Virus record (IMG/VR): IMGVR_UViG_3300047160_007712
Location: 1 to 50,683 of that record
Source: a virus
Reading direction: 5' to 3' (one strand)
Length of the DNA: 50,683 nucleotides
In this document: one piece after another, positions 98-24,297 of the stretch
Layout of the letters: each line of letters begins with the position of its first letter
Numbering within the stretch: position 1 is the stretch's first letter
Notes under the pieces: model-generated
The model's database searches: none
The model's input: only the letters and a program-made list of their open reading frames with translations
What the model was told of the DNA's origin: nothing
Position numbers and translations under genes: made by a program

Positions 98-2695
98 TGA
101 GGTCCAGTTGCCGGATTGGGAAACAGCGGGAGTGTTGGTGATGAAGGCGTTGACACCGTTGACGGCGACGGCGCCAGGGGAGGTGCCGTAGTTGCTTGGT
201 GAGCCAAGAGCGACGCCATTCCAGCTGGCGTTGTTAACGGCAACGGTGGCGGCAATGGAGACGGGTTGGGTGACGGCCGAACCATCAACGCGCATGGCTC
301 CGGCGGTGGTTAGGGAGAGGGGCGATGTCTGGGCGGTTGTGTAGGTTGGGGCGGCGGTGGTGACGGCGGCAAGGGCTAGATAGCCTGTTTGGCCGGATGT
401 GGTTGAGCCTTGGGCGGCGGCAGTTGGTTGGTTCGCGGACGTGGCGGCACCAGTCGGGAGGGAAACGGTGCCGGAAATGTTGTTGATGTTATTGGTCGAG
501 CCGGTCAGTTGGGTGGAGAATGTGCCAGTGCCAACGACCGTGGCGTTCAGGTTGGCTGCGGTTGCTTGGGAAACCGGTTGGGTGACGGAGGAGCCGTCAA
601 CGCGGAGGTTCCCGACGGTGGTTAGGGAGAGTGGATAGGAGTTGCCGGTGGTGTCGGTCGGGGCAGAGGTGGTTGCAGCGCCAAAGGCTAGGCCGCCGGT
701 CAGGCCAGAGGTTGCGCCGCCTTGAGAGACGTTGGAGGGCTGGTTGGCAGATGTTGCCGCACCGGTTGGGAGAGAGACCGTGCCGGAGATGTTGTTGATG
801 TTGTTTGTTGCGCCGGTTAGTTGGACGGCGAGGGTACCAGTGCCGACGATGGTGGCGTTGAGGTTCGCGGCGGTGGATTGGGAGACCTGAACCGGTGTCA
901 TCGAGGCGATGCCCTGGACGGTGAGGACGCCGGTTGCTGCGGTGCCAGCGGTGCCAGAGCCAGAGGCAACGAGGGGGTTCGAAGATGTGGCGATTTCGGT
1001 GCCTGAAGCGTTGCGGAGGTTAGTGAACAGCGCGCGATTGGCAGTGACTTGCAGGGTACCCCACTGGCCGGTGGTGAGGGCATTGTTGGTTGCGGTGGTT
1101 TGGTAGAAGCCGCCGGAGGGAGCAAAGACTGATGAGCCGGCGGTGAATGTGGCTTCGTCAGTTCCGGATGCACCGGAGCCCGAGCAATTGGCGCAGGTCA
1201 TGTTGAGGTTTGCAGCGGTAGCCTGGGCGACGGTGACAGAGTTGGTGACGAAGGCATTGACGCCAGGGACGGAGACAGCACCGGGCGACGTGCCGTAGTT
1301 GCTGGGCGAGCCTAGGGCAACGCTGTTCCAGCTGGCGATGTTGTCGGAGGTTGAGACGGCGGTGGAGTTCGAGCCAGTGTTGGCGAGGGAGACTTGGACG
1401 GGGGTGGAGGAAGTGCCGATCTCGGTGCCGGATGCGTTGCGGAGGTTGACGAACGCGGCGCGATTGGCGGTGAGTTGGAGAGTTCCCCATTGGCCATTGG
1501 TTAGGGCGTTGGATGTGGCGGTTGTTTGAAAGAAGCCACCAGATGGGGCGAAGATGGAGGAACCGGCGGTGAAGGTGCCTTCGTCTGTGCCAGATGCGCC
1601 GGAGCCAGAACAGTTGGCACAGGTGATGTTGAGATTCGCCGCGGTTGGTTGCTGGACTGTGACAGCGCCGGAGATTGAGACTGGTTGGGTGACGCCGGAG
1701 CCATCGACGCGAAGGCCCCCAGTGGTGGTGAGGGAAAGGGGCGACGATTGGCCGGTGGTGTAGAGTGGGCCGCCAGTGGTGACGGCGCCGAGGGAGAGGG
1801 TGCCGGTCTGGCCAGAGGTTGTTGAGCCCTGAGCGGCCGCGGTGGCTTGGTTGGCGGATGTGGCGGCGCCGGTGGGAAGCGAGACCGTACCGGAGATGTT
1901 GGTGAGGTTCCAAGTGCCGGACTGGGCGGCTTGGGTGGCGAATGTGCCTGTGCCGACGACGGTTGCGTTGAGATTGGCGGCGGTCGGTTGAGTGACGGTC
2001 GATTGGGTGACGAAGGTGCCGGTCCCGACAACGGTGGCGTTTAGGTTGGCGGCTGTGCCTTGGGAGACGGGTTGGGTGGTGGCGGAACCATCGACCCGAA
2101 GCCCGCCGGAGGTGTTGAGGGATAGTGGCCAAACGTCGCCGGTGGTTGTGGTGGGGGCGGAAGTTGAGGCCGCGGCGAGGGCGAGAGTGCCGGTTGTGCC
2201 GGCGGTTGCTTGGCCTTGGGTCGCATTGGAGGGCTGGAGGGCGGAGGTAGCAGCGCCGGAAGGGAGGGGGAGACTGGCGGCTGAGATTGGTTGGGTGGTT
2301 TGCCAGAAGGTGCCTGAGACGGGTTGGGTTGCTTGCCAGAAGGTTCCGGTGACGGGGAAGGTGCCGCCGGTGCCGGTGACAAGCCAGGCGGTGGTGTTGG
2401 CGGTGTTGCCGGGCTGAACGGTCCAAGTGCCGGATTGGGTCGCGGCGAAGGTGGTGTTGGCGATCGATCCGCCGGCGATGTTGATGTTGAGGCCCGAATT
2501 GCCGGCGTTGACGGTGGCGGAAGTTGTGCCGTCGTAGATTTGGACCAGCGGCCAGCACGGGGCGGTGCCAGTGACGCAGTTGAAGTTGAACGGCGTGCCG
2601 GAGCCGGGGACGGTGACGTTGAGTTGGGTGGTCGTGGCTAGGGCTGGCGCGGCGAGGAGCGCTAGGGCTAGGGCGGCTGTGAGGCGGCGGATCAC
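1..2695 (-). CDS. N-terminal 898 codons of a 1224-aa repeat-rich, signal-peptide-bearing fibre/adhesin-like protein. The ORF continues across the circular junction into 50586..49607.
   Basis: Absent from the ORF track because it runs off the window edge. My own minus-strand translation starts at GTG 2695, which overlaps the TGA of ORF 2692-2874 (GTGA). It is stop-free to base 1: (M)IRRLTAALALALLAAPALATTTQLNVTVPGSG...AANLNATVVGTGTF...ISGTVSLPTGAATSANQ...CANCSGSGASGTDE. The two other minus frames hold only R/P/H-rich shadow ORFs. Confidence 0.8.
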   Translation of the reverse strand, partial: MIRRLTAALALALLAAPALATTTQLNVTVPGSGTPFNFNCVTGTAPCWPLVQIYDGTTSATVNAGNSGLNINIAGGSIANTTFAATQSGTWTVQPGNTANTTAWLVTGTGGTFPVTGTFWQATQPVSGTFWQTTQPISAASLPLPSGAATSALQPSNATQGQATAGTTGTLALAAASTSAPTTTTGDVWPLSLNTSGGLRVDGSATTQPVSQGTAANLNATVVGTGTFVTQSTVTQPTAANLNATVVGTGTFATQAAQSGTWNLTNISGTVSLPTGAATSANQATAAAQGSTTSGQTGTLSLGAVTTGGPLYTTGQSSPLSLTTTGGLRVDGSGVTQPVSISGAVTVQQPTAANLNITCANCSGSGASGTDEGTFTAGSSIFAPSGGFFQTTATSNALTNGQWGTLQLTANRAAFVNLRNASGTEIGTSSTPVQVSLANTGSNSTAVSTSDNIASWNSVALGSPSNYGTSPGAVSVPGVNAFVTNSVTVAQATAANLNMTCANCSGSGASGTDEATFTAGSSVFAPSGGFYQTTATNNALTTGQWGTLQVTANRALFTNLRNASGTEIATSSNPLVASGSGTAGTAATGVLTVQGIASMTPVQVSQSTAANLNATIVGTGTLAVQLTGATNNINNISGTVSLPTGAATSANQPSNVSQGGATSGLTGGLAFGAATTSAPTDTTGNSYPLSLTTVGNLRVDGSSVTQPVSQATAANLNATVVGTGTFSTQLTGSTNNINNISGTVSLPTGAATSANQPTAAAQGSTTSGQTGYLALAAVTTAAPTYTTAQTSPLSLTTAGAMRVDGSAVTQPVSIAATVAVNNASWNGVALGSPSNYGTSPGAVAVNGVNAFITNTPAVSQSGNWTSRIVGNAGATIDSTIAAGTAPTNGIATLVQYST

Positions 2696-2874
2696 TCAAA
2701 CTCCACAGAGTTTGTCGTCGCGCAGAGGATGGTGGTGAGGGTGGTGACGGAGGAACAAGCGGGCGGGGCAGGTGTGCCGCCGCCGGACTGGGCATCAGTG
2801 ACGCCGTGAAGGGTTTGGGCGTCGGCGGCAAGGGCGAAGAACATGGCCATGACTAGCCAAAGCCAACGGTTCAT
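2692..2874 (-). CDS. Small secreted protein (60 aa), function unknown
   Basis: ATG at 2874 overlaps the upstream stop (ATGA). N-terminus is MNRWLWLVMAMFFALAADA/QT: positive n-region, hydrophobic core and an AxA site. I trimmed this from the track ORF 2692-2979. Confidence 0.6.
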   Translation of the reverse strand: MNRWLWLVMAMFFALAADAQTLHGVTDAQSGGGTPAPPACSSVTTLTTILCATTNSVEFE

Positions 2875-3362
2875 TGGGAAATTTGCCAACCCCACATGGT
2901 GACTGAGGCGGTTGTGCCAGCGCCGCCAGCTGGGACGGTTAGGGTGATGGCGGTGTTGGGGTTGGTCGCGCCGACGCATTGCGGGAATGCAACGCCGAGA
3001 ATGCCTTGGCCGGAAGAAACAAAAGTGTAGGTGAAGTACATTGTGCCGCCGACCACGCCGGTGATGGTGGGCTGGACGACGGCCGCGGTGGTTGTGCCGC
3101 CGGAAGAGATGACGAAGCCGCAGATGTAGTTGACCTCGCCGGGGGCAGCACTGAAGGCGGCGGAAAGTGTGCCGGTTGTGCCGAAGGATGACGCGGTGAT
3201 GTTCGCGCCCACACCGCCGGAGGGAGTGATGCCTTGGGCGACAGCGGGGCGAGAAAGAAGGCCCAGGGCCATCAAGATGATGAAGCCCAATGACATCATC
3301 GAGACCCTGGGCCCTACGCCAGGAGGAATAGGACGGGAGGAAATCCCCGCTGGCGATCTCAT
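2871..3362 (-). CDS. Secreted beta-rich protein (163 aa, or about 142 aa from the internal MMS start), function unknown
   Basis: Track ORF. ATG 3362 overlaps the upstream TGA (ATGA). Contains MMSLGFIILMALGLLSRPAVA/QG, a signal-peptide-like segment. The rest is G/T/S/A-rich. Confidence 0.65.
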   Translation of the reverse strand: MRSPAGISSRPIPPGVGPRVSMMSLGFIILMALGLLSRPAVAQGITPSGGVGANITASSFGTTGTLSAAFSAAPGEVNYICGFVISSGGTTTAAVVQPTITGVVGGTMYFTYTFVSSGQGILGVAFPQCVGATNPNTAITLTVPAGGAGTTASVTMWGWQISQ

Positions 3363-3901
3363 TCTGCTGTTACCTTTCGAGCTCGGGCCATGGCGGCTTC
3401 GAGGCGGTCGGCCATGCCAATGTTGACGTTGAGGTCTTTGGTTTGCTTTCTTGAAAGGCCGACACGGTCATGGGCGTCGGCCTGAATGGCGAGGAGGTTG
3501 GAAAGTGGGAGTGGGAGGTCCTCGTCGTCGAGGATGTCGTCGATGCGTCGGCCGGCCTTAACTGCACGGGCTTGATAGGCGGCGGTCTCACGGGCGAGGA
3601 AATCGGATTCCTCGTTGAATGCCAGGGCGCGATAGTGGGCTTGGAGCTCGATGTTGGCTGGATCGCGTTTGAGCAGGCCAATCATCGCGAGCGAGAAGCC
3701 GGTCATCTGGGCGACTTCATAGTCTTTGTAAAGGCCTGAAGCGAGAAGTCGGGCGACGCGATGATGCGAGTCCTTGAGCTTTTGAAAAGGCTGTTGGACC
3801 GCCCGTTCGCGCAGATGTGACAAGTCCGCCTCGGTCAGCGGGCGGACTGAGAGAATCGTCGCTGTGCCGGGCTTGCGGTGGGCTAGGCGAGACGGCGGCA
3901 T
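3359..3901 (-). CDS. HTH DNA-binding protein, possibly the terminase small subunit (180 aa)
   Basis: Start trimmed to ATG 3901, which has GGAG 11 nt upstream. The segment HHRVARLLASGLYKDYEVAQMTGFSLAMIGLLKRDPANIELQ has the layout of TerS N-terminal HTH domains. This is pattern-level only. Confidence 0.45.
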   Translation of the reverse strand: MPPSRLAHRKPGTATILSVRPLTEADLSHLRERAVQQPFQKLKDSHHRVARLLASGLYKDYEVAQMTGFSLAMIGLLKRDPANIELQAHYRALAFNEESDFLARETAAYQARAVKAGRRIDDILDDEDLPLPLSNLLAIQADAHDRVGLSRKQTKDLNVNIGMADRLEAAMARARKVTAE

Positions 3902-4053
3902 GTGAATATGAACTCCGGAGGTTTGGGCTCGGGCGGCGGCTGGGGCGAGCGGTGGATTAGATCGAACACAATTCGCGCCGGAATATCCCGTTCGCGCAGC
4001 CAAAACACCGTCGCCGGCCGCAACAAATCGCCCTTCCGAATATACTTCCTCAT
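3883..4053 (-). CDS. Small basic protein (56 aa), possible DNA-binding regulator on a near-leaderless mRNA
   Basis: ATG 4053 begins MRKYIRKGDLLRPATVFWLRERDIPARIVFDLI. It lies about 11 nt downstream of the -10 of the candidate promoter at 4064-4092. It overlaps the next ORF by 19 nt. Confidence 0.4.
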   Translation of the reverse strand: MRKYIRKGDLLRPATVFWLRERDIPARIVFDLIHRSPQPPPEPKPPEFIFTCRRLA

Positions 4054-4063
4054 CTTGCCCTTC

Positions 4064-4092
4064 ACTATGGCATGCTCCCCATTCTATGTCAA
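4064..4092 (-). promoter_or_regulatory. Candidate sigma70 promoter (minus strand): TTGACA-17 nt-CATAGT
   Basis: Plus-strand tgtcaa at 4087-4092 is a perfect -35 on the minus strand. Plus-strand actatg at 4064-4069 gives CATAGT (4/6 match). The spacer is exactly 17 nt. Confidence 0.4.
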
Positions 4093-4167
4093 GAACTATT
4101 TACTGAGATCTACTGTACACTAAACCAAAATTTGTAATATTTGCTGGGGGGGTGTCTGGGCGCGACG

Positions 4168-4217
4168 AAAAGCCAAAATTTTGGCCCCGGGGGTGGCGTC
4201 TGACCATCCCCGGGGCC
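4168..4217 (-). terminator. Rho-independent terminator candidate after ORF 4235-4570
   Basis: Perfect 10-bp GC stem, GGCCCCGGGG (4183-4192) paired with CCCCGGGGCC (4208-4217), and a 15-nt loop. On the minus strand it is followed by AAAATTTTGGCTTTTC. Confidence 0.55.
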
Positions 4218-4234
4218 AATGGTGAGAGCCTAGG

Positions 4235-4570
4235 TCACTTGGCCTTCGACGCAGCGTTGACGCGAGCGACCAGCTGGGCAAGGCCAGCGGAGGGCGCGGC
4301 GACCGGGGCGAGAGCGGCGGCTAGGCCACGCTTGTAGCTGAAAACCAAGCGAAGGTGAGGTTCGGGCTCTAGCATGGCAGTCATCGCGCCTTCGAAGGCG
4401 GATCGCGCCTTGCCAATGGCGTAGTACAGGGCCTGAACATCATCGGGAAGTTCGGTCGGGTCGATGTTGTCCCACACGAGCGTTGGCTTGGCGGAGGGTG
4501 CAGGGGCTGGCGCGACGGTGCCTTGCTTGGCCTTGGCAGCGGCGAGCATGGTGGTGATGTTGCTGGTCAC
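4235..4570 (-). CDS. Hypothetical protein (111 aa), first ORF of the leftward arm
   Basis: Track ORF with a GTG start at 4570. AGAGGA lies 8 nt upstream. Confidence 0.6.
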   Translation of the reverse strand: MTSNITTMLAAAKAKQGTVAPAPAPSAKPTLVWDNIDPTELPDDVQALYYAIGKARSAFEGAMTAMLEPEPHLRLVFSYKRGLAAALAPVAAPSAGLAQLVARVNAASKAK

Positions 4571-4698
4571 GGGCTTAGTCCTCTCGTGGCGTGATTGCCA
4601 CGGTCAACAGCCTCCCACACCATTGTGGCGAAAGTATGACAAGTTGAGAAAATAAATTTGTTCCCCAAATGTTCTCATTCCGTTCTCCACCTGTTCTG

Positions 4699-4742
4699 GA
4701 TATCCTTGAGATATCCCAGAGATATCCTATGGATATCCTATA
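4699..4742. repeat. Left iteron array: four GATATCC repeats at an exact 11-bp period
   Basis: GATATCC starts at 4699, 4710, 4721 and 4732. A degenerate GATTAAT follows at 4743, then GATTAATGGAT. Confidence 0.9.
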
Positions 4743-4803
4743 GATTAATGGATTAACAAAAAGTGACCCACATTCTGCAAGCCTGCAAATTCCAGCGCAA
4801 ATT

Positions 4804-4854
<51 letters not shown>

Positions 4855-4866
4855 TACATATACCAC

Positions 4867-4887
4867 CCCTCCCCCCCCCAGGGAGGG
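4867..4887. other. C-rich hairpin next to the A tract
   Basis: CCCTCCC (4867-4873) pairs with GGGAGGG (4881-4887) around a 7-nt C-rich loop. TCAATTTTC follows on the plus strand. Confidence 0.5.
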
Positions 4888-4915
4888 TCAATTTTCAAAC
4901 ATCCATTAATCCATA

Positions 4916-4959
4916 GGATATCTCTAGGATATCTCTAGGATATCTATAGGATATCCATT
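4916..4959. repeat. Right iteron array: four GGATATC repeats at an exact 11-bp period, inverted relative to the left array
   Basis: GGATATC starts at 4916, 4927, 4938 and 4949. A ninth copy sits at 4995-5001, just upstream of the early promoter. ATCCATTAAT (4901-4910) is the inverted partner of ATTAATGGAT (4744-4753). Confidence 0.9.
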
Positions 4960-4962
4960 AAA

Positions 4963-4974
4963 TCCATTAATGGA
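4963..4974. promoter_or_regulatory. Perfect 12-bp palindrome TCCATTAATGGA (operator candidate)
   Basis: The sequence is its own reverse complement and lies 42 bp upstream of the -35 at 5016. The same half-sites recur at 6468-6479 and 6490-6501. Confidence 0.4.
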
Positions 4975-13906: not shown

Positions 13907-14074
13907 ATGGATGGTATCGCCCTAGTCATCGCCCTCATCGCCCTCACGCTTTCCGTTGTCAACTTCCTCGCCATCACCAGTGAAATCCAAGACCGCGCCC
14001 AGAACATCTCCCAGCTCTACGACGACATCACAAAGTGGATCAAGGACATCTACGCCGACATGGCGCGCCGATGA
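13907..14074 (+). CDS. Small membrane protein (55 aa)
   Basis: My own translation: MDGIALVIALIALTLSVVNFLAITSEIQDRAQNISQLYDDITKWIKDIYADMARR. GGAG lies 10 nt upstream, and the stop overlaps the next ATG (ATGA). Confidence 0.55.
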   Translation: MDGIALVIALIALTLSVVNFLAITSEIQDRAQNISQLYDDITKWIKDIYADMARR

Positions 14075-15168
14075 CACGCATCGTCCTTATCGGCGAGGCC
14101 CTTGGTCAAGAAGAGGTCCGCACCGGCGCGGCGTTCGTCGGCTCCTCCGGCGGCGTTTTGCTCAAAATGCTCGATGAAGCCGCCATCCTCACCCTCGACC
14201 ACACTGATCGCAGCTTGCTGGGCCAATACTACCGCACCCGCAATCCCAAACTCAATGCCAAAATCTGGGAACGCCACCCCGATGTTCATCGCACTAACGT
14301 CTTCAATCTCCACCCTGAAGGCAATGACCTTGCCACTCTTTGCGGCCCTAAGTTCCTTGGGCTGGACGATTATCCACCTCTGGCAAAATCCAAATACGTC
14401 TCACGCACCTATGCGCCCGAACTTGCCCGGCTTGCCGATGAACTTCTCGCCCACAACCCCAATCTGGTGGTTTGTCTTGGCAACACTCCCCTTTGGGCTC
14501 TCTCTGGCCGGATTGGGATTAAAAAGTTCCGGGGGACAACTTTCAACTCTGACCATTGCGTTGCTGATTTTAAGTGCCTTGCCACTTATCATCCTGCTTA
14601 TATCATACGCCAATGGCGCGATCGCTCCATCGTCATCGCCGACCTGATCAAAGCCCAACGGGAAGCCCACTCCCCAACCATAGAGCGCCCACACCATGAC
14701 ATCTGGATCGACCCGACGCTCGATGATATCGCGGCGTTCAATGCGAAATATGTTAACCAATCCCGACTCTTGTCTGTTGATATTGAGACTTCAGGCCAGC
14801 GTGTTACATGCATTGGATACGGATACAGCGAAGTTTCTATTGTTGTTCCATTCGATGACCCCAGAGCAGCGGGAAGAAGTTATTGGCCTACTCTGGCAGA
14901 TGAACGAGGCGCTTGGCAGATTATCAAACGGCTGTTGGAAGATGCAACAGTTCCCAAACTATTCCAAAACGGCCTCTACGACATAGCGTTTCTCTACAGA
15001 TCAATGAACATCCACGTCCTGGGCGCGAGTGAGGACACCATGCTCGCCCATCACGCCCTTCAGCCCGAAATGATCAAAGACCTGGGCTTCCTCGGCTCCA
15101 TCTACACGACGGAGCAAACATGGAAACACCTCGGCAAACGGGCGAAAACCATCAAAGGCGACAATTGA
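14071..15168 (+). CDS. DNA polymerase part 1: family-4 UDG-like domain plus the 3'-5' exonuclease ExoI/ExoII motifs (365 aa)
   Basis: LIGEALGQEEVRTGAAFVGSSG and LATYHPAYIIR are UDG4-like. SVDIETSG is ExoI, and QNGLYDIAFL with EDTML is ExoII. Start trimmed to ATG 14071. Confidence 0.75.
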   Translation: MTRIVLIGEALGQEEVRTGAAFVGSSGGVLLKMLDEAAILTLDHTDRSLLGQYYRTRNPKLNAKIWERHPDVHRTNVFNLHPEGNDLATLCGPKFLGLDDYPPLAKSKYVSRTYAPELARLADELLAHNPNLVVCLGNTPLWALSGRIGIKKFRGTTFNSDHCVADFKCLATYHPAYIIRQWRDRSIVIADLIKAQREAHSPTIERPHHDIWIDPTLDDIAAFNAKYVNQSRLLSVDIETSGQRVTCIGYGYSEVSIVVPFDDPRAAGRSYWPTLADERGAWQIIKRLLEDATVPKLFQNGLYDIAFLYRSMNIHVLGASEDTMLAHHALQPEMIKDLGFLGSIYTTEQTWKHLGKRAKTIKGDN

Positions 15169-16664
15169 AAATCATCTCCACCCACCTCACCGACCTAGAC
15201 ACCCTCACCGACTGGGAGAAGGATCAAGTCTACAATGGCCTCGATGTCTGCCAAACCGCCGCGATCTGGTCCGCCCTCGAGCCACAACTCGACGATCAAG
15301 CCCGCTCCACCTACGAGTTTTCAAAGTCACTTCAAGGCCCGGTGCTTGATATGCGGCTTCGAGGTTGCTTGGTGGACATGGAACGCCGCGACCAAGTCAT
15401 CGACGAATTCGCCGACCTCCTCGACCGCCTTGAGCGAGACCTTGACCGACTTATCCTCGAGGGCGTCGGCATGCTGTCCTTCAACTGGCGAAGCAATCGT
15501 GACCTGCAAGAGCTATTTTACAACCATCTCGCCCTGCCCGAAATCCTAAAGTCCGGCCGGCCAACCGTCGATCGCGCCGCCCGAGAACAACTCGAAAACT
15601 ACCCATCCGCCACCCAAATCGTCCGCCACATCAACCTCATGACCGAACTAGGAGACAAAATTGCAGTCCTTCGCACCGAAGTCGACCATGATCTCCGAAT
15701 TAGAACGAGCTATAACATCGCTGGCACAGGCACGGGTCGATTTAGTTCAAGCCTGTCCGAGTTCGGTACCGGGGGAAATCTCCAGAACGTTGAAGAGTCT
15801 CTCCGAAGTATCTTTATTGCTGACCGGGGTTATAAGTTTGCTAAATTCGACGCAAAGTCCGGCGAGTCATTCTGTGTCGGCGCTATCGAATGGGACCTAT
15901 TCCGCGACCCACGCTACCTCGACGCCTGCGAGTCTGGCGACCCTCACACAGCAGTTGCTCGACTGGTGTGGCCTTCCCTCCCATGGACCGGTGACCCAAA
16001 GCAAGATCGCAGTGTCGCCAACGGCAAATTCTATCGAGCTAAATCTTACCGTGACACTTGCAAAAACCTCGGCCATGGAACCAACTACCTAGCCCAACCA
16101 CCAACCCTCGCCGCGATGTACCGCGTTGACCTCGAGCTCGTTCAACAATTCCAGCCCAAGTACTTCGCCGCCTTCCCCGCCCACCAACTCTGGCACGAGT
16201 GGACAGCAGAACAACTCAAATCGAATGGCTTCCTCACCACCCTAACCGGCCGCCTTCGCCACTTCCACGGCCGACGCACTGACCCCCGCACCCTTCGCCA
16301 AGCGATCGCCTATTCCCCCCAAGGCTCCCTAGCAGACATCGTCAACCTCGCCATGCTCAACATCTGGCGCCAGAACATCGCCACCGTTATGTTCCAAGAC
16401 CACGACGCAATCACATTCATGTACCCCGAACACCTCGAAGACCACATCATCCCCTCCCTCCAGCGCAACCTCATCATCCCCATCCAACTCGCGGGCGGTC
16501 GCACCCTCCGCATACCCTACGACTGCAAGACCGGCTGGAACAAGTCCGAGTTTCATCCGGAGAAAAATCCAGATGGCTTAAAGGAGTGGGAAGGGCATGA
16601 CAACCGAAAGCGAACTCCACAAACAGAAATACTCGACAGGGTTATCTCAAGATCGACTGCGTAA
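15120..16664 (+). CDS. DNA polymerase part 2: ExoIII motif plus the family-A polymerase domain (514 aa as tracked). The frame is -1 relative to part 1.
   Basis: YNGLDVCQT is ExoIII. FDAKSGESF is motif A, RDTCKNLGHGTNY is motif B, and QDHDAITF is motif C. Confidence 0.8.
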   Translation: METPRQTGENHQRRQLKIISTHLTDLDTLTDWEKDQVYNGLDVCQTAAIWSALEPQLDDQARSTYEFSKSLQGPVLDMRLRGCLVDMERRDQVIDEFADLLDRLERDLDRLILEGVGMLSFNWRSNRDLQELFYNHLALPEILKSGRPTVDRAAREQLENYPSATQIVRHINLMTELGDKIAVLRTEVDHDLRIRTSYNIAGTGTGRFSSSLSEFGTGGNLQNVEESLRSIFIADRGYKFAKFDAKSGESFCVGAIEWDLFRDPRYLDACESGDPHTAVARLVWPSLPWTGDPKQDRSVANGKFYRAKSYRDTCKNLGHGTNYLAQPPTLAAMYRVDLELVQQFQPKYFAAFPAHQLWHEWTAEQLKSNGFLTTLTGRLRHFHGRRTDPRTLRQAIAYSPQGSLADIVNLAMLNIWRQNIATVMFQDHDAITFMYPEHLEDHIIPSLQRNLIIPIQLAGGRTLRIPYDCKTGWNKSEFHPEKNPDGLKEWEGHDNRKRTPQTEILDRVISRSTA

Positions 16665-17892
16665 GACTGATGCAGAGAATATTCTTGACACACCCCGCGG
16701 GGTTATAAACCGAAAGTGTGAGTCGTGGATTGCTAGCTTCATCGCTGAAACCTCCAACCTCGGCGCGCCCACCATCTGGCGGCAATGGGCGGCGATCTCT
16801 GTCATCGCCGCGGTCCTCGAACAGCGCGTTTGGCTCCAAACCTCCTCCCCGCTTTATCCCAACCTCTACCTAATGATCGTCGGCCCACCGGGCACTGGCA
16901 AGACCAGAACATTGCGTGTTGCCAAACGCCTGCTCCTAACCATCCCCGAGTTCGGCCTCGCCCCAACCTCCGTCACGTTCCCAGCCCTGGTCGACGCGAT
17001 GGACCTTTGCAAGCGCACCATCGCCATCCCAGGCTCTGACGAAGTCCAAGAATACAACTCCATCTACATCTGCGCGGAAGAGCTCGGCGCATTCATCCAC
17101 AAGTGGGATGAGGAAATGATCAAAGGCCTCTCCGCCTTCTACGACGTCGACCCCTACGCCCAGAACCGCCGAACCAACGATCTCAAGATCAAAATCGACC
17201 GGCCACAAGTCAACATGATCTGCGCCTGTACGCCCCAAGACCTGCTCAAACTCATGCCCGATGTCGCCTGGGGTCAGGGCTTTACCTCGCGCACTATCAT
17301 GATCTATTCCCCCGAGCGACTCAAGGTCGATGACTTCGCCCGCCGCCCGCCGCCCAAACTCCACAATCTCTCCTTCGACCTCAACATCATCCACAACCTC
17401 TCCGGGGAATTTCATGCGACTAAGGAATACATTTCGCGCGTTAATTCATGGATCGATCAAGGTGAGCCGCCCATTCCCAAACACCCTAAACTTCTCCATT
17501 ATATTTCCCGCAGAAAGGTTAATATTTATAAACTGTCAATGGTCGCATCGGTCGATCGATCAAACGCCCTCGTCCTCCGTGAGGAAGACTTCAATCGAGC
17601 TTACAACTGGCTATGTGAAGCCGAGTCACTCATGCCGGAGATCTTCAAAACCGGCGCGGTGAACCTCGACGCCCAGGCCATGGACGAAATCCGCCACTTT
17701 GTCATGGCGGCCGATCGGGGCAAGGGCGTTGAGGAACACAAGATCACCTACTTCGCGCGGGATAAGATCCAAATCAGCATGATCAAACACATGCTCGACA
17801 TCATGGAAGGGACAGGCATGCTGCGCAATCGCGGCGTTGATCCGCGGACGGGGTATCGCCTGTTCTCGGCCTCCGATCCCGAGGCCGATTAA
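16597..17892 (+). CDS. P-loop NTPase, DUF3987-like putative replicative helicase (431 aa)
   Basis: Walker A MIVGPPGTGKT and Walker B-like IYICAEELG. AAAGGAG lies 9 nt upstream of the ATG. It overlaps the polymerase 3' end by 68 nt. Confidence 0.6.
   Translation: MTTESELHKQKYSTGLSQDRLRKTDAENILDTPRGVINRKCESWIASFIAETSNLGAPTIWRQWAAISVIAAVLEQRVWLQTSSPLYPNLYLMIVGPPGTGKTRTLRVAKRLLLTIPEFGLAPTSVTFPALVDAMDLCKRTIAIPGSDEVQEYNSIYICAEELGAFIHKWDEEMIKGLSAFYDVDPYAQNRRTNDLKIKIDRPQVNMICACTPQDLLKLMPDVAWGQGFTSRTIMIYSPERLKVDDFARRPPPKLHNLSFDLNIIHNLSGEFHATKEYISRVNSWIDQGEPPIPKHPKLLHYISRRKVNIYKLSMVASVDRSNALVLREEDFNRAYNWLCEAESLMPEIFKTGAVNLDAQAMDEIRHFVMAADRGKGVEEHKITYFARDKIQISMIKHMLDIMEGTGMLRNRGVDPRTGYRLFSASDPEAD
17866..17888. 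terminator. Hairpin at the convergence point of the two arms
   Basis: TCGGCCTC (17866-17873) pairs with GAGGCCGA (17881-17888) around a 7-nt loop. There is no clear U tract on either strand. Confidence 0.25.
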
Positions 17893-18582: not shown

Positions 18583-21500
18583 TCAATACGCCCTTCCGCG
18601 AATTCGATTAATCACCGTCGACGAGTGGTGCAAGCCCGTCCCATACCTCGCCCCAACCAGCCATCCCCACGGGCCCTTGGGATGCTCGAGGCCGTGCTTC
18701 ACACCATAGGCATAAGCCGCAACATTGCCCAACTCTTGTGGCACAAGCCCCTTCAACAACAACCCCGCAAGGCCGGCGAAGTCCTTGATCAACCTCTGTG
18801 CATGGGCCGGCGACATCGGCTGCTTCTTCCAAACATCCTCATAAACCTTCTGCAATTCCTTCACGCCGGTCTGGGACAATCCCAACGTCACATCGCCGCC
18901 CTCGATCAACGAATGCGCCACATCCCGCACCAGTGGCAAAGTCGAGGACTCGGTGTATGCCATTGCCTTCGCGGCCTTCTTGCCCCAACTATCCCCGGGC
19001 TCGGACTTGATCGGCGAGACGAGCTGCTCGATGATCGCCGGCCAAATCGCCGCAGCGAACAACCCCGCCGCAATCTTCGGCACCATCCCCATCGCCGCAT
19101 CTCGATCCCCGGCCTTCGCATGGCCCGCCGCTTCCCCCGCCATCCACAGCACCTCCATCGTTCGATTAAACATCGTCGACCAGAAGTTGTAAATCGACGT
19201 GAACCATGGGTTGAAACTCCGCTGAAATTGACTCATGTTGGTAATCGCCACATCCCCATGCGCCCGCCTCACCGCGCGCTCACCGGCGTAAATCGCATCG
19301 GCCTGGGTTCGCCCCTCATCAATCGCCCTCATATATCCCCCGAGAAACGTCGGGTTGCTCGACAGCAAATCTCCAAGCGCCACGGGTTTTGAATAAAGCC
19401 TCTCGGCCCGCATGTGTAATGTACTTTCCCCAGTCTGCGATGCAATCTGGCCGTAGAGTGTCTCTTGCCAATTCCTGTCCCGCGCCCGAAGCAACTCAGA
19501 CTTCTCCTTAATCCACTTATAATTCCTCTGCCCGGTTTCCTCATTCACCTCAAACAGCGCCCTCACCGCGCGGAGGAAGTACTCAGGCCCGACTTGGACG
19601 ATTGATGTCATCAGCGCGGTGGGTGTGTGCTTGGCAAATGTCCCGAGATTAGCCCCGGTCAAGACCGTGACCAGATTGCGCCGCAACGACTCTGCCCATG
19701 AGTTCGCATATGCTTGATTCGCAGTGAGATAATCCCGATTATTCGCCACATCCCGCACATACGACTTCAACATATCCGCATATTCCGTCCCAACATGCAG
19801 CGAGATCGCCGAGGTAATTCGCTTGTCGAAGAAGATCTTACTCGCATTGATCAGCGCCGGCCGCATGGCGATGTCATGCAACTGCTGGCGGATTAAAAAC
19901 GGCACACTCTTCAAATCCAACGCTAGTGGTGCAACGTACCCCGTTCGATCCCTCGCCCAGGAATTTGTCGGAAGGCCGGAGATGAAGTTCGACCCGAGTA
20001 GCGAATCGCCCTTACCAGCAAGGTCCTTGTTAACCCCATCATGAAACGTCGGGTGGAAGTCACTCGTCGGGAAATATCCGCCGCGATATGTGCCGAACTT
20101 GGTTTGGATCGGCTGGAACTTGATCGAGTCCGGCGCAACGCCCCCACTGAGTGACCGATATGACCGATCTCCGCGCTGTTTGATCTCGGCGAATATATCA
20201 TCCCAAATCCTCTGGACATAGTCCCAATGTTCCTTCTCGGCGACCTCATGCACCCATCCCTCGACCTGCTCGGGCTTGAGCGCATAACCATTCGCGCGTT
20301 TGAACAAATTCGACTTCGGTCCATCCCTCGAGCCCATATCGAGCATGATCCTTATCAAATTCTCCACGTTAAAATCCAACAACTGCCCAAAACCCCCACC
20401 CTTAAATGGCACACGGAACAACGGGTTCGACACGGGCTTGGACATATCAATGTCCCCCTTGAGGTCCTCAAACCTCTTTGCAAATTCCCTGTTCCAAGTT
20501 CGTTCTTGTAAATTGCCATCGATTAAATCCCTTAACCCCCACTGTTGCCACGGGCCCCATTGGTCGAAATGATCCCACCAATTCAGCACAAATTCCGCCT
20601 TCAGCCCCATGACCGAGAACACCCGTGGGAGCCTAAGCCCCTTCTCCAACCAACCAGCCCGCCCTTCACCTGCGGCGTATTTAACCTCGCCGAACCGCTC
20701 AAGGCTTTGGGTCAGTTCGCCGATCTTATCATCAAGATCCGCCTTCTCGCCCGCGCTGACAATCTTCCTCTCCTCGCGCCCGTTATGGTTCAGCGTCTTC
20801 AACGAGTCATGCAGCGCGGCGAACTGCGCGCCCGTCATCTCCTTCCAATTCCCAGCAGTGGCGTTGATCAATTCCTCCGCAACGGGCATAACGCGCCCGA
20901 ACCGCTGCTTTGCGTCGGTGAAATCCGCCAACGTCCCCGTCCCACGATCGGCGATGTCCGCGGCGATGGCTTGCACTGACCGCCGCACCGGATACCCAAC
21001 CGCGATCATAATCTGGTGCATGTAGTTCAAATACTCCACATCAATCGGCAAATCCCGCAGCTTCTCGCCCGAGCCCATTTTGCCAACGGTCTCGGTCAGC
21101 GCGTTCATCTGCTTAATGCGCTTTTCATATTCCTTCACCTCTGCGGCGATATACCCCGCACGAGCCCGCCGTTGCAGCGCCTGCACCGCGGTGGCCGGAT
21201 CGCCATTTGCCAACGACCGAATGACAAGTTCCTGCGCCCGCCTAATCACACTCCCCCATTTGTCCGACGACATCGACCCAATGGGCAATTCCCCCGCATC
21301 TTTCACCGCCTCGGCCTTGATCACTTCCTTATCAACCGCCGTGACCCCATGCCGCCACGCAGCGCCGAGATATTCCTCGGTGAGATAGTTGGTCTCTGCC
21401 TCACTCAGCGCCCGATCTTTGGCCTCGCTCAGCACATTCTCCGGCAAATCTCCATGCACCGCCTCCATCCGCCGATCGGTTTCAGCATTAACCAGTGCGG

Positions 21501-24297
21501 CGAAATGTTCTCGCGCAGTCAAACCGCCCTTGGTGGTTTGATACCCAACCAACGCCTCGACCAAGGCGTCTTTTCCATTAAACCCGAACAGCCGCGCCAC
21601 GTCATCCGCCGGGAAGCCGGACTTGCTAACATACCGCGGCGGCAATGCGGCGATCTGCTCGGGGGTTAGGTCAGCCGAACTCAGACTGTGCCTCGTTTTG
21701 CCCGTATCTTCCCCATACAATTGCCCCGCTCCAAGGAACAAATCGGCCGCAGTTGTGGGCCGATGTTGGACCTGTTCCTCAACCCTGACCTTCATCTCCT
21801 TGCGATTGTCCCGCCACTCCTTCCCTTGCCGGATGGTTTCATCCTTCTCGGCCTTCTTCATCGCGGCTGCGAGATCGCGGGCATAGCGTTCGTGGGCGAG
21901 CTTGGACAGATTAGCGTAGGTCTCAGCGTCCAGCCTAAGCCCTGAAGCTTTGAGGTTGTTGAGCTGGTCCTCAGCCATCGCTCGGGGCTCAACCTGCGCC
22001 ATCATCTCGCGCTGATGCAACGGCACACCTTCCCGTCGCCCAATCGCGCCCTCACCGGCTTGCTGGAACAACTCCTCCCATGTAGGTTCGTGCCCGAGCA
22101 ATGCCGTGATCCGATCCTTAATCGCCTTGAAGAACTCGGCGAGTTTCGCGAAGATCTGCCCGACGGGCGAATACTCCCGCACCGCTTCGCCCGCATCTCG
22201 GGCCTGGAGGTAGTGTCTAAACCCCTCCGCGATCGCTTCCTCGTCCCGCATCGCTGGGCTAGCATTTGGGTATCGTGTGTCGATGTGATATCGCTCGTGC
22301 CAACCCTCATCCCGCGCCGCATCGACCAGCGTCGTCCATTCATTATCCTTGATCAAGCCCTCTTGTCGAAGCCAATGCAAGCCCTCATGCCGCCCAGTTC
22401 CCAACGGGTTCCCGCTAAGCAAATCATGCACAATCCAACCCGAGCCCTCATGCAAGCCCTGGTACAGGCCCTGAGCCCGCCGACCACCGACCATCAACCC
22501 CGACGTGGTAACAACCTTCGCCTTTCCACCGGTGATCTTAGCAATTTCCTCCCGGGCGATTTTATCCAGCGCCGCTTGGTTCTTCGTCATCAACTCCGTC
22601 GGGAACGGCCGCGCTGACCAGTGCTCACTCATTTGCCTATAGGCCAACCCGTGGAAGATGTCCTGCATAGGTTCAACGACATTCCAGTCATTGGGCGTGT
22701 CGAGCCGAATCGTCACCATCTCCGGCCGACCCTCTCGGGCACCAGAGACCCGATAACCACTGATCGTCTCAGCTTCAGGGTACATCTGCTTGAGCTGCCG
22801 CACCAAATCCCTAATCAACGCCGGCCCAAAGTCATTCGCCCACATCCCGGCGATGCCGTTGATGTTTTCAATTTCAATGTTTTTGCCTTGCGGTGTGATC
22901 ACCATCCCACCGACCGGCCGACCATTCTCGTCGAGAATATCCAGCCCATGCATGCTTGGGCCGACATCGGTCTGGGCGAGACTCAGCTTCCTGTCCCCCA
23001 TTGAGAACATGGGCTCAAGGCCAAACGCGCCCCTCACCTGCGCGAGTGGATCATCCACCATCGCCTTGGGCACTGCCCCGGCCAGTTGCTTGGCCTCCTC
23101 GGCGCTCACCCCACCAGGCCAAATGGAAACAAAATCATCCAACTGCTTCGCTAACCCCGGGTCGATCTTCGCGATCCAATCCGCGATCGGTATCTCGACA
23201 TCCGCGCCCGCCTTCCGCGCTAGGTCGAGCTTCTTCCCAATCCCCTTCACCCAGCCCAGCAACCCATCGCCCGGTTCGGGGAGTTTGTCGCCATAGAGGC
23301 CGATTGCATCTTCGGCTGGGATGGATACATTACTCCGACCGTATTTGAATTGCACAAAATCCTTAAACAGTCGATCGGACAATTCTTTGGTCTTTGCATC
23401 CTGCGCCAGGGAGGTGATTCGATCAATCTCCTTCACCAACTCCGCATTGACCCCAGCCTTCACGGCGTCAATGAGCGGATGAATTCCCTTCGGCACTTCC
23501 CTCCCCGCTTCGCCCCATAGCCTCAATGCCGCGCCGAATTCCTTGCCGAATTCCCCACCCTTTACAAGCCCTGGTTCGGTGATCCGGCGCTCGAGCTCAC
23601 CCGACACATCGCGGCCGAGTTGTTCGGCAGTGCCAATGCGCCCGACCCAACCCGACGCATCAATCCCGACCTTGCCAAGGGCAGAGACCACATCCTGTGG
23701 CAACGCCCCAAGCGGCGCGGCTTCCTCCGCAACCATCGCGCCCGCACCATGAATCGCGCCCATGAGGAGGTTTGAAACGCCCTCCGTCGCAACCTCGCCC
23801 AGGTTCAACCCAACCGTCGCGGCGAAGTTCGACATCAGCGCCCGATGTTTGTCCAAGGCTGGGAACAACTCACCGACTTGATCCGGGGTGTATTGCGTAA
23901 TCGGCCGATTGAAGTCCTCCTTCGCGGCCGACCATCCAACCCCGAGTGTATCCCAGGGTGTATGCAACGCCTTGATCATCTGCGCCGACGTGTTCGCGGC
24001 GCTTGAGATGTTCGCCAAATTCCCCCAATCATCCTGACTGACCGCCGCGGCCATGGGGTGGGAATGGATATACGCCATCAGCTCCGCATCGCTCGACACC
24101 AACCGGGTCGCTAGTGAGCCCTTGTATTCCTTCTCAAACCCATCCGGATCGCCCGCGATGACCTCAGGCGCAACGCCCGATGAGTCGGACAGCGACGTAA
24201 TCCGCGCCGCTTCCTCGGGCGATGTCTCCATCCCCGTGACGGTTCGGGCCTTAGCGGCGGTGATGTAACTATCAACCGCGTCGGAATAATCGGTCAT
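18583..24297 (-). CDS. Giant internal virion/ejection-type protein (1904 aa) with a zincin HExxH motif
   Basis: Track ORF in the T7 gp16 position. HEGLH is at residues 637-641 (22375-22389), with EEAIAEGF downstream. Hydrophobic segments lie near the C-terminus. Confidence 0.7.
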   Translation of the reverse strand: MTDYSDAVDSYITAAKARTVTGMETSPEEAARITSLSDSSGVAPEVIAGDPDGFEKEYKGSLATRLVSSDAELMAYIHSHPMAAAVSQDDWGNLANISSAANTSAQMIKALHTPWDTLGVGWSAAKEDFNRPITQYTPDQVGELFPALDKHRALMSNFAATVGLNLGEVATEGVSNLLMGAIHGAGAMVAEEAAPLGALPQDVVSALGKVGIDASGWVGRIGTAEQLGRDVSGELERRITEPGLVKGGEFGKEFGAALRLWGEAGREVPKGIHPLIDAVKAGVNAELVKEIDRITSLAQDAKTKELSDRLFKDFVQFKYGRSNVSIPAEDAIGLYGDKLPEPGDGLLGWVKGIGKKLDLARKAGADVEIPIADWIAKIDPGLAKQLDDFVSIWPGGVSAEEAKQLAGAVPKAMVDDPLAQVRGAFGLEPMFSMGDRKLSLAQTDVGPSMHGLDILDENGRPVGGMVITPQGKNIEIENINGIAGMWANDFGPALIRDLVRQLKQMYPEAETISGYRVSGAREGRPEMVTIRLDTPNDWNVVEPMQDIFHGLAYRQMSEHWSARPFPTELMTKNQAALDKIAREEIAKITGGKAKVVTTSGLMVGGRRAQGLYQGLHEGSGWIVHDLLSGNPLGTGRHEGLHWLRQEGLIKDNEWTTLVDAARDEGWHERYHIDTRYPNASPAMRDEEAIAEGFRHYLQARDAGEAVREYSPVGQIFAKLAEFFKAIKDRITALLGHEPTWEELFQQAGEGAIGRREGVPLHQREMMAQVEPRAMAEDQLNNLKASGLRLDAETYANLSKLAHERYARDLAAAMKKAEKDETIRQGKEWRDNRKEMKVRVEEQVQHRPTTAADLFLGAGQLYGEDTGKTRHSLSSADLTPEQIAALPPRYVSKSGFPADDVARLFGFNGKDALVEALVGYQTTKGGLTAREHFAALVNAETDRRMEAVHGDLPENVLSEAKDRALSEAETNYLTEEYLGAAWRHGVTAVDKEVIKAEAVKDAGELPIGSMSSDKWGSVIRRAQELVIRSLANGDPATAVQALQRRARAGYIAAEVKEYEKRIKQMNALTETVGKMGSGEKLRDLPIDVEYLNYMHQIMIAVGYPVRRSVQAIAADIADRGTGTLADFTDAKQRFGRVMPVAEELINATAGNWKEMTGAQFAALHDSLKTLNHNGREERKIVSAGEKADLDDKIGELTQSLERFGEVKYAAGEGRAGWLEKGLRLPRVFSVMGLKAEFVLNWWDHFDQWGPWQQWGLRDLIDGNLQERTWNREFAKRFEDLKGDIDMSKPVSNPLFRVPFKGGGFGQLLDFNVENLIRIMLDMGSRDGPKSNLFKRANGYALKPEQVEGWVHEVAEKEHWDYVQRIWDDIFAEIKQRGDRSYRSLSGGVAPDSIKFQPIQTKFGTYRGGYFPTSDFHPTFHDGVNKDLAGKGDSLLGSNFISGLPTNSWARDRTGYVAPLALDLKSVPFLIRQQLHDIAMRPALINASKIFFDKRITSAISLHVGTEYADMLKSYVRDVANNRDYLTANQAYANSWAESLRRNLVTVLTGANLGTFAKHTPTALMTSIVQVGPEYFLRAVRALFEVNEETGQRNYKWIKEKSELLRARDRNWQETLYGQIASQTGESTLHMRAERLYSKPVALGDLLSSNPTFLGGYMRAIDEGRTQADAIYAGERAVRRAHGDVAITNMSQFQRSFNPWFTSIYNFWSTMFNRTMEVLWMAGEAAGHAKAGDRDAAMGMVPKIAAGLFAAAIWPAIIEQLVSPIKSEPGDSWGKKAAKAMAYTESSTLPLVRDVAHSLIEGGDVTLGLSQTGVKELQKVYEDVWKKQPMSPAHAQRLIKDFAGLAGLLLKGLVPQELGNVAAYAYGVKHGLEHPKGPWGWLVGARYGTGLHHSSTVINRIRGRAY

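Follow-up and report, generated by a model that had tools for sequence, protein, structure and literature searches.

Background

Phage DNA polymerases encoded in pieces are known, among them the split gp43 of T4-related phages. Within family A, a split polymerase (PolA) in T7-like cyanophages of the S-SBP1 type was reported as the first in the family; frameshifting was argued against there from relatives, and the S-SBP1 complex was predicted to keep an intact fold (Czernecki et al. 2023, Nucleic Acids Research, PMC10201439). Split phage polymerases have also been mentioned in passing (10.1101/325100; PMC10580990). The present analysis concerns two adjacent genes, here called A and B, on the plus strand of IMG/VR virus record IMGVR_UViG_3300047160_007712, of which positions 1 to 50,683 were analysed (50,683 nucleotides (nt); "the window" throughout, to which all coordinates refer). 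The pair encodes a uracil-DNA glycosylase (UDG)-like domain, a 3'-5' exonuclease domain and a family A polymerase domain, and the boundary between the genes falls inside the exonuclease domain. The favoured explanation, to which a probability of about 0.88 was assigned, is an ancient gene fission in that domain, giving a polymerase made by two translationally coupled genes, whose two chains would be obligate partners and would form a composite exonuclease site.

Two further kinds of system were used for comparison. In Aeromonas phage Aeh1, nrdA is split by the homing endonuclease gene mobE, an arrangement termed "genes-in-pieces" (PMC3045599). Programmed -1 frameshifting is known from dnaX and from the phage tail chaperone genes G/GT (Xu et al. 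2004 as cited in PMC10201439).

One exonuclease domain in two reading frames

Gene A (14071..15168, plus strand) encodes 365 amino acids (aa), comprising an N-terminal domain like the family-4 UDGs and the first two-thirds of the 3'-5' exonuclease domain, and ends in a conserved ...TIKGDN* (C-terminal end ...WKHLGKRAKTIKGDN*; stop codon TGA at 15166-15168). Its open reading frame (ORF) may start at GTG 14035, giving a 377-aa reading, or at ATG 14071, which agrees with homologues. The UDG-superfamily domain lies at 14071..14625 (plus strand; Pfam PF03167, E 7.5e-16, residues 9-197 of the 377-aa reading). It is followed by the ExoI motif SVDIETSG (14773..14796, plus strand), with catalytic D237 and E239, and by the ExoII motif QNGLYDIAF (14965..14991, plus strand), with N300, Y303 and D304; EDTML is also found in ORF A.

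Gene B (15165..16664, plus strand) encodes 499 aa when read from a TTG codon, and opens with a conserved strand (MKII), which is followed by the ExoIII helix and then by the polymerase domain of family A. Its frame, offset by -1 relative to ORF A, opens at 15033, behind a TGA at 15030-15032, and runs to its end at 16664. The ExoIII motif YNGLDVCQT (15231..15257, plus strand) holds catalytic Y23 and D27 of chain B, and both residues were found in 75/75 related loci. The polymerase domain (DNA_pol_A, 15432..16472, plus strand; Pfam PF00476, E 3.4e-28) has sequence matches in the PDB to Taq, Bst and Klenow. In the alignments of homologues, there is no variation in the five exonuclease residues named for chain A, in the YNGLD tyrosine and aspartate of chain B, or in the polymerase catalytic residues D594 and H778-D779 (A+B numbering).

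When chain A was searched against Pfam, DNA_pol_A_exo1 (PF01612) was matched at profile positions 15-120 of 173 only, and profile positions from about 122 to 172 sit on the polymerase-bearing chain B. Joining the tail of A to the head of B extended the match to positions 15-172 of 173. One exonuclease domain model is thus divided between the two ORFs. The locus thus has a polymerase domain with ExoI (DxE), ExoII (NxxxD/YD) and ExoIII (YxxxD), as a Klenow-like family A enzyme does, with exonuclease and polymerase not on one polypeptide. An earlier note, made from the letters of this DNA, had described the exonuclease domain as split at a -1 offset between ExoII and ExoIII, with both frames open together over 15033-15168 (136 nt) and no canonical slippage heptamer near the break. 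The ORFs, motifs and coordinates were as described there, and each of these three observations was confirmed.

Family-4 UDGs carry the motifs GE(A/G)PG and HPA, with which the N-terminal domain of chain A was compared. It reads GEALG in place of the first motif, keeps the second (TYHPAY) and contains few cysteines. Judged from sequence, the domain may be without an iron-sulfur cluster and catalytically inactive. The UDG-like domain of N4-like UDG-PolAs has been reported as inactive (PMC10201439).

The junction in the window and the start of gene B

The stop codon of A and the putative start codon of B overlap in a TTGA (15165..15168, plus strand), in which TTG 15165-15167 opens B and TGA 15166-15168 closes A. 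This TTG was overlooked in the earlier note and coincides with the position at which chain B starts in relatives; read from it, chain B of the window begins LKIISTHLTDL.... A candidate Shine-Dalgarno sequence, AAAGG (15154..15158, plus strand), lies 6 nt upstream of the TTG within the last codons of gene A, and relatives have AAGAGGGA or a similar sequence at the equivalent position. An alternative in-frame ATG for gene B (15120..15122, plus strand) is preceded by GGAG at 15111-15114 (GGAG-N5-ATG) and would add 15 residues (METPRQTGENHQRRQ). It derives from codons round an invariant Trp of chain A, is unconserved in relatives, and was retained as an alternative only. In the closest relatives, frame B is closed upstream of the conserved start. 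TTG 15165 is favoured as the start of gene B.

A programmed -1 frameshift within 15033-15168 would yield a fused UDG-exonuclease-polymerase beside a short UDG/exonuclease product. The 136-nt overlap at a -1 offset in the window would suit such an event, as would the A-rich stretch GCGAAAACC. Against it, no canonical X_XXY_YYZ heptamer was found in frame A within 15033-15168, where the sole homopolymer is AAAA at 15145. No stimulatory downstream RNA structure was found either: the minimum free energy of 15150-15270 was -19.1 kcal/mol vs a mean of -23.8 kcal/mol for shuffled controls (z = +1.58), so that the RNA around the start of B folds more weakly than the controls and is unstructured. Comparison with relatives largely refutes a programmed frameshift, which was judged very improbable.

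Conservation of the break in relatives

Compared by blastn with 50,697 phage records, the region gave no match. By tblastn, six of the same records were matched, with no N4-like phage among them; the best was Caulobacter phage Kuura, a cultured podophage (PMC9959647). Protein Kuura_029 (369 aa) ends in ...DLGFLGSIYTNHPSWKLLNSRHADEFKQGN and protein A of the window in ...DLGFLGSIYTTEQTWKHLGKRAKTIKGDN, at the same homologous residue. Two small ORFs (98 and 102 aa) stand between Kuura_029 and the polymerase Kuura_026, which starts LAIIIQSATADL... (LAIIIQ...). At least 585 related stretches were found in IMG/VR. Junctions were compared in a set of 66 non-redundant loci, the window and Kuura included, and frames were counted in 75 loci.

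Across this very large clade, the stop of A and the start of B occupy conserved homologous positions, whatever intervenes: this holds at 66/66 non-redundant junctions, and none is fused. The junction takes several states. An insert of 118-982 nt is present in 45 loci and a spacer of 3-60 nt in 5, while the genes overlap by 4 nt (NTGA) in 10 and by 1 nt in 6. The TTGA of the window represents the compact, insert-free state. The two genes are always adjacent and in the same orientation. All three relative frames occur (offsets 0, +1 and -1). By frame, the 75 loci fall into groups of 33, 22 and 20. In the two closest relatives (L002 and L004, 70-79% identity), the junction reads ...GATAATTGAG..., with a frame-B TAA directly before the TTG, so that fusion by a -1 shift is impossible there.

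These observations bear directly on frameshifting. In L002 and L004 there is no overlap window in which to shift; elsewhere the halves differ in offset or are separated by up to 982 nt and whole genes, and at each of the 66 junctions a separate start codon for B stands in a conserved place.

The protein families gave the same result. The 120 best homologues of chain A (53-100% identity) are all 362-393 aa long and share the C-terminus ...WK..TIK[R/G]D-x-stop; database source names label them "uracil-DNA glycosylase". Against 1.84 billion representatives of 50% identity clusters, chain A gave 5602 matches, 619 of them with E<=1e-30. The best 150 of these (36-53% identity) are 201-512 aa long, and none of the 150 reaches the 800-900 aa expected of a fusion. 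The conserved stop of chain A was counted in 120/120 and 150/150 of these two sets. For chain B, 118/120 of the best homologues are 490-564 aa long, and approximately 100/120 were called with an N-terminus of the M[KR]II type (MKII or MRII), giving a conserved M-[K/R]-I-I...YNGLD at the head of the chain. In nearly all of the 18 loci from metagenome-assembled genomes (MAGs), the break between ExoII and ExoIII persists, even at identities as low as 26-32%.

One MAG locus (L099; CAVTRT010000003.1, 4,735,474 bp, uncultured Actinomycetota MAG, positions 2501-3627) is a split-type homologue of 37% identity in a 4.7-Mb contig, which suggests an integrated prophage. The other MAG matches are on contigs of about 2-64 kb. 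The phyla assigned to these contigs are numerous and unrelated, and the contigs look like phage DNA that was mis-binned.

The earlier note had expected a single polypeptide and had offered three explanations of the break: a 1-nt deletion in the assembly, a programmed -1 frameshift, or a genuinely split two-chain exonuclease. A single polypeptide is contradicted by the relatives, since the same stop is found in all of those examined and none is fused. A 1-nt deletion, whether an error of sequencing or assembly or a recent inactivating mutation in a single-chain gene, would fit the single-base offset, the commonest kind of artefact, and the single-chain state of more distant homologues. It is scarcely credible given that hundreds of independent assemblies, drawn from different projects, and the genome of an isolate all place the stop at one homologous residue, and that conservation extends to the new terminal motifs TIK[R/G]D and M[KR]II. 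Decay was excluded because the exonuclease and polymerase catalytic residues are all invariant; the earlier note had proposed that unrelated break positions in relatives would point to decay, and in the orthologues the break position proved invariant. Of the three explanations, the evidence favours the genuinely split exonuclease. Judged by comparison of these sequences, the split is old and widespread (hundreds of related phages), and is neither a sequencing error nor a ribosomal frameshift. Both halves and all catalytic residues are under conservation.

Genes inserted at the junction

The inserts found in relatives are small same-strand ORFs, usually fitted so that their start and stop codons overlap with those that close A and open B. 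The majority belong to no recognisable family. Among the others are an HNH_3 endonuclease (L012, E 2e-10), a LAGLIDADG_3 protein (L026, E 2e-5), an HNH protein (L063, PHROG match) and a 144-aa nucleoside deoxyribosyltransferase homologue (L066; phrog_12607, E 1.8e-50). The last of these extends the cargo of the junction beyond endonucleases. No homing endonuclease gene is present between the halves in the window. The apparent use of the junction as an insertion point suggests that the fission may have begun as, or may later have been exploited by, "genes-in-pieces" insertions.

In a distant relative with a single exonuclease domain, Vibrio phage vB_VspS_VS-ABTNL-3 (L084; MF497422, positions 1835-4969), the polymerase is split elsewhere. 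The order there is PVS_29 (568 aa, exonuclease and N-terminal part of the polymerase domain), PVS_28 (184 aa) and PVS_27 (298 aa, "DNA polymerase I"); PVS_28 matches only PHROGs without known function.

Single-chain homologues and the extra residues of chain B

More distant homologues run uninterrupted through the junction, as in the polymerases of Desulfofustis phage LS06-2018-MD01 (826 aa) and Microcystis phage Mel-JY34 (810 aa). These single-chain enzymes are without the approximately 15-20 residues that make up the new N-terminus of B in the split clade.

Two homologues of chain B (P0223 and P0236, 789 and 804 aa) owe their length to some 289 inserted residues that immediately follow KKLGHG within the polymerase domain. 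The insertion starts CLTPDHEVL... and includes a LAGLIDADG_3 domain. It looks like a classical intein; if so, another type of mobile element, at another site, also affects this polymerase family.

The halves might also be joined after translation, by protein trans-splicing of a split intein. Metagenomes are known to contain fractured genes in which split inteins and homing endonucleases occur (PMC2677866), and some B homologues carry the intein-like insertion just described, elsewhere in the protein. The junction itself is unlike a split intein: the approximately 15-20 extra residues could not accommodate an N-intein half and a C-intein half, Pfam detected neither an intein nor a Hint family in A or B, and B begins M-K/R-I-I, unlike an intein C-terminal segment. 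Trans-splicing was accordingly given almost no weight.

Structure models

Chains A and B, covalently joined in natural order, were modelled by AlphaFold2 with a predicted local distance difference test score (pLDDT) of 84.5 and a predicted template modelling score (pTM) of 0.75. Confidence in the joined model is low for the loop at the junction (residues 351-360); residues 2-5 of B (KIIS) form a short beta-strand, and the ExoIII helix comes directly after it. The model superposes on the Pol I, Klenow and Bst large fragments (TMt 0.70-0.75, approximately 645 columns). When it was searched against BFVD by Foldseek, the best match was a single-chain viral protein of 823 aa (TM 0.71/0.74 over 900 columns, with the query artificially covalent). 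The superposition on this protein covers the full length of the model, whose overall three-domain fold is like that of single-chain UDG-PolAs. As modelled, no part of the fold is missing from A and B together.

Proposed mechanism

Under the favoured explanation, an old fission would have broken a polymerase gene in the loop between ExoII and ExoIII. A and B would be translated from one shared mRNA; no terminator-like site was found between them. Termination at TGA 15166-15168 would be coupled to reinitiation at TTG 15165, giving roughly equal amounts of the two chains. The chains would then associate non-covalently into a Klenow-like UDG-exonuclease-polymerase enzyme with a composite proofreading site, to which chain A would contribute D/E and D and chain B Y/D. 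The junction would tolerate the insertion of small cargo genes, free-standing homing endonucleases included.

Several points weigh against this explanation, or against parts of it. The adjacency of the termini in the natural-order model is trivial, the chains having been joined covalently. In a permuted B+A AlphaFold2 run with free termini (pTM 0.52), the last 38 residues of A had pLDDT <50, so that docking of the A tail is not confidently predicted. Translational coupling is read from gene geometry, and the association of the chains and their exonuclease activity are predictions. Taken by itself, the window leaves frame B open as far upstream as 15033, with a good GGAG-N5-ATG at 15120. For this reason the exact N-terminus of B is uncertain, and low-level frameshifting in this particular genome keeps a small probability.

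The same weaknesses in the models would allow A and B to be independent proteins. In that case A would bind or repair DNA as a UDG-like protein with a disabled remainder of the exonuclease, and B would be a polymerase deficient in exonuclease, its ExoIII helix a vestige. Retention of an inactive exonuclease domain for the sake of stability is known in PolAs (Czernecki et al. 2023, PMC10201439). Dead half-sites would not be expected to keep all five exonuclease catalytic residues invariant on both chains down to low identity. The two genes are also, without exception, tightly coupled neighbours that point the same way. The tail of A (LGFLGSxY..WK) is moreover homologous to the matching segment of the single-chain enzymes. 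Independence of the two proteins was considered improbable, and the composite two-chain enzyme is preferred.

A more speculative extension of the two-chain enzyme is that its proofreading site is obligately inter-subunit, with ExoI and ExoII supplied by the UDG-like subunit and ExoIII by the polymerase subunit. The split would then be more than a neutral scar: it would persist because changes in the ratio of the subunits, or their exchange, let the phage adjust proofreading or turn it on and off, together with any UDG-linked editing. The junction would also be a protected, translationally coupled "landing pad" at which homing endonucleases and other cargo genes come and go. This extension is doubtful, and is put forward tentatively.

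Implications

Gene callers and annotation pipelines will go on naming chain A "uracil-DNA glycosylase"; chain B will appear as a "DNA polymerase I" that is odd or has no exonuclease, or else a frameshift will be reported. Once A and B are recognised as a single enzyme, annotations can be corrected on thousands of metagenomic phage contigs, in a clade that is almost entirely uncultivated; its cultured member, Caulobacter phage Kuura, makes the idea directly testable. For enzymology, a natural PolA with its exonuclease residues on two polypeptides would be a system in which to study the folding of the proofreading domain and its communication with the polymerase site, and could guide the engineering of split polymerases. 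For evolution, junction states ranging from compact overlap to occupation by homing endonucleases across many genomes bear on how mobile genes fracture essential genes or colonise already fractured ones.

Genome context

The 50,683-nt window resembles a complete tailed-phage genome. The plus strand carries a replication module (exonuclease, Sak4-like annealing protein, the split polymerase and primase), and the minus strand carries structural genes (terminase, portal/adaptor-like protein, major head protein and tail protein). A 1904-aa ORF at 18583-24297 (minus strand) stands at the head of the structural block. Downstream of gene B, the longest ORF of the primase-like gene (16597-17892; phrog_14296, E 4e-47) overlaps the end of B by 68 nt (16597-16664). 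The phrog_14296 match begins at residue 43 of this ORF, and the real start may be further downstream.

Comparison with known systems

A literature search for a split inside the exonuclease domain of a UDG-PolA found no description of one; the search gave other split polymerases only, from T7-like cyanophages, MEP401-type OM43 phages and an uncultured cyanophage lineage. The paper describing Kuura (PMC9959647) does not mention the split. Split PolA is thus already known as a kind, and a cut inside the exonuclease domain of a UDG-PolA is apparently undescribed.

As in dnaX and the tail chaperone genes G/GT, two ORFs of one functional unit overlap here at a -1 offset. Unlike those genes, this locus has no slippery heptamer or stimulatory structure, and in relatives the overlap is unconserved and the ORFs may be fully separated. 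The resemblance to nrdA of phage Aeh1 is that both halves are kept and are presumed to reassemble. It differs from Aeh1 in that no endonuclease lies between the halves in the window, and in that the inserts of relatives are usually small unassigned ORFs and only sometimes HNH or LAGLIDADG genes.

The order of domains (UDG-like, 3'-5' exonuclease, polymerase) is that of the single-chain UDG-PolAs (N4-like cluster 17 and SPO1-type, PMC10201439; Desulfofustis and Microcystis phages). In contrast to these proteins of 800-900 aa, the split clade has a stop and a start in the ExoII-ExoIII loop and the approximately 15-20 extra residues at the N-terminus of B. The S-SBP1 polymerase is similar in its mode of division: in both cases a family A polymerase has been fissioned into adjacent genes of the same orientation, in different frames and with overlapping stop and start, and the arrangement is conserved among relatives. 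In S-SBP1, as described in PMC10201439, a complete exonuclease gene is separated from a polymerase-only gene, whereas here the cut lies inside the exonuclease domain, so that the site would be composite. The present proteins further differ from the T7-like S-SBP1 polymerase in their UDG-like N-terminal domain, in belonging to a much larger and more divergent clade, and in a junction that often hosts inserted genes.

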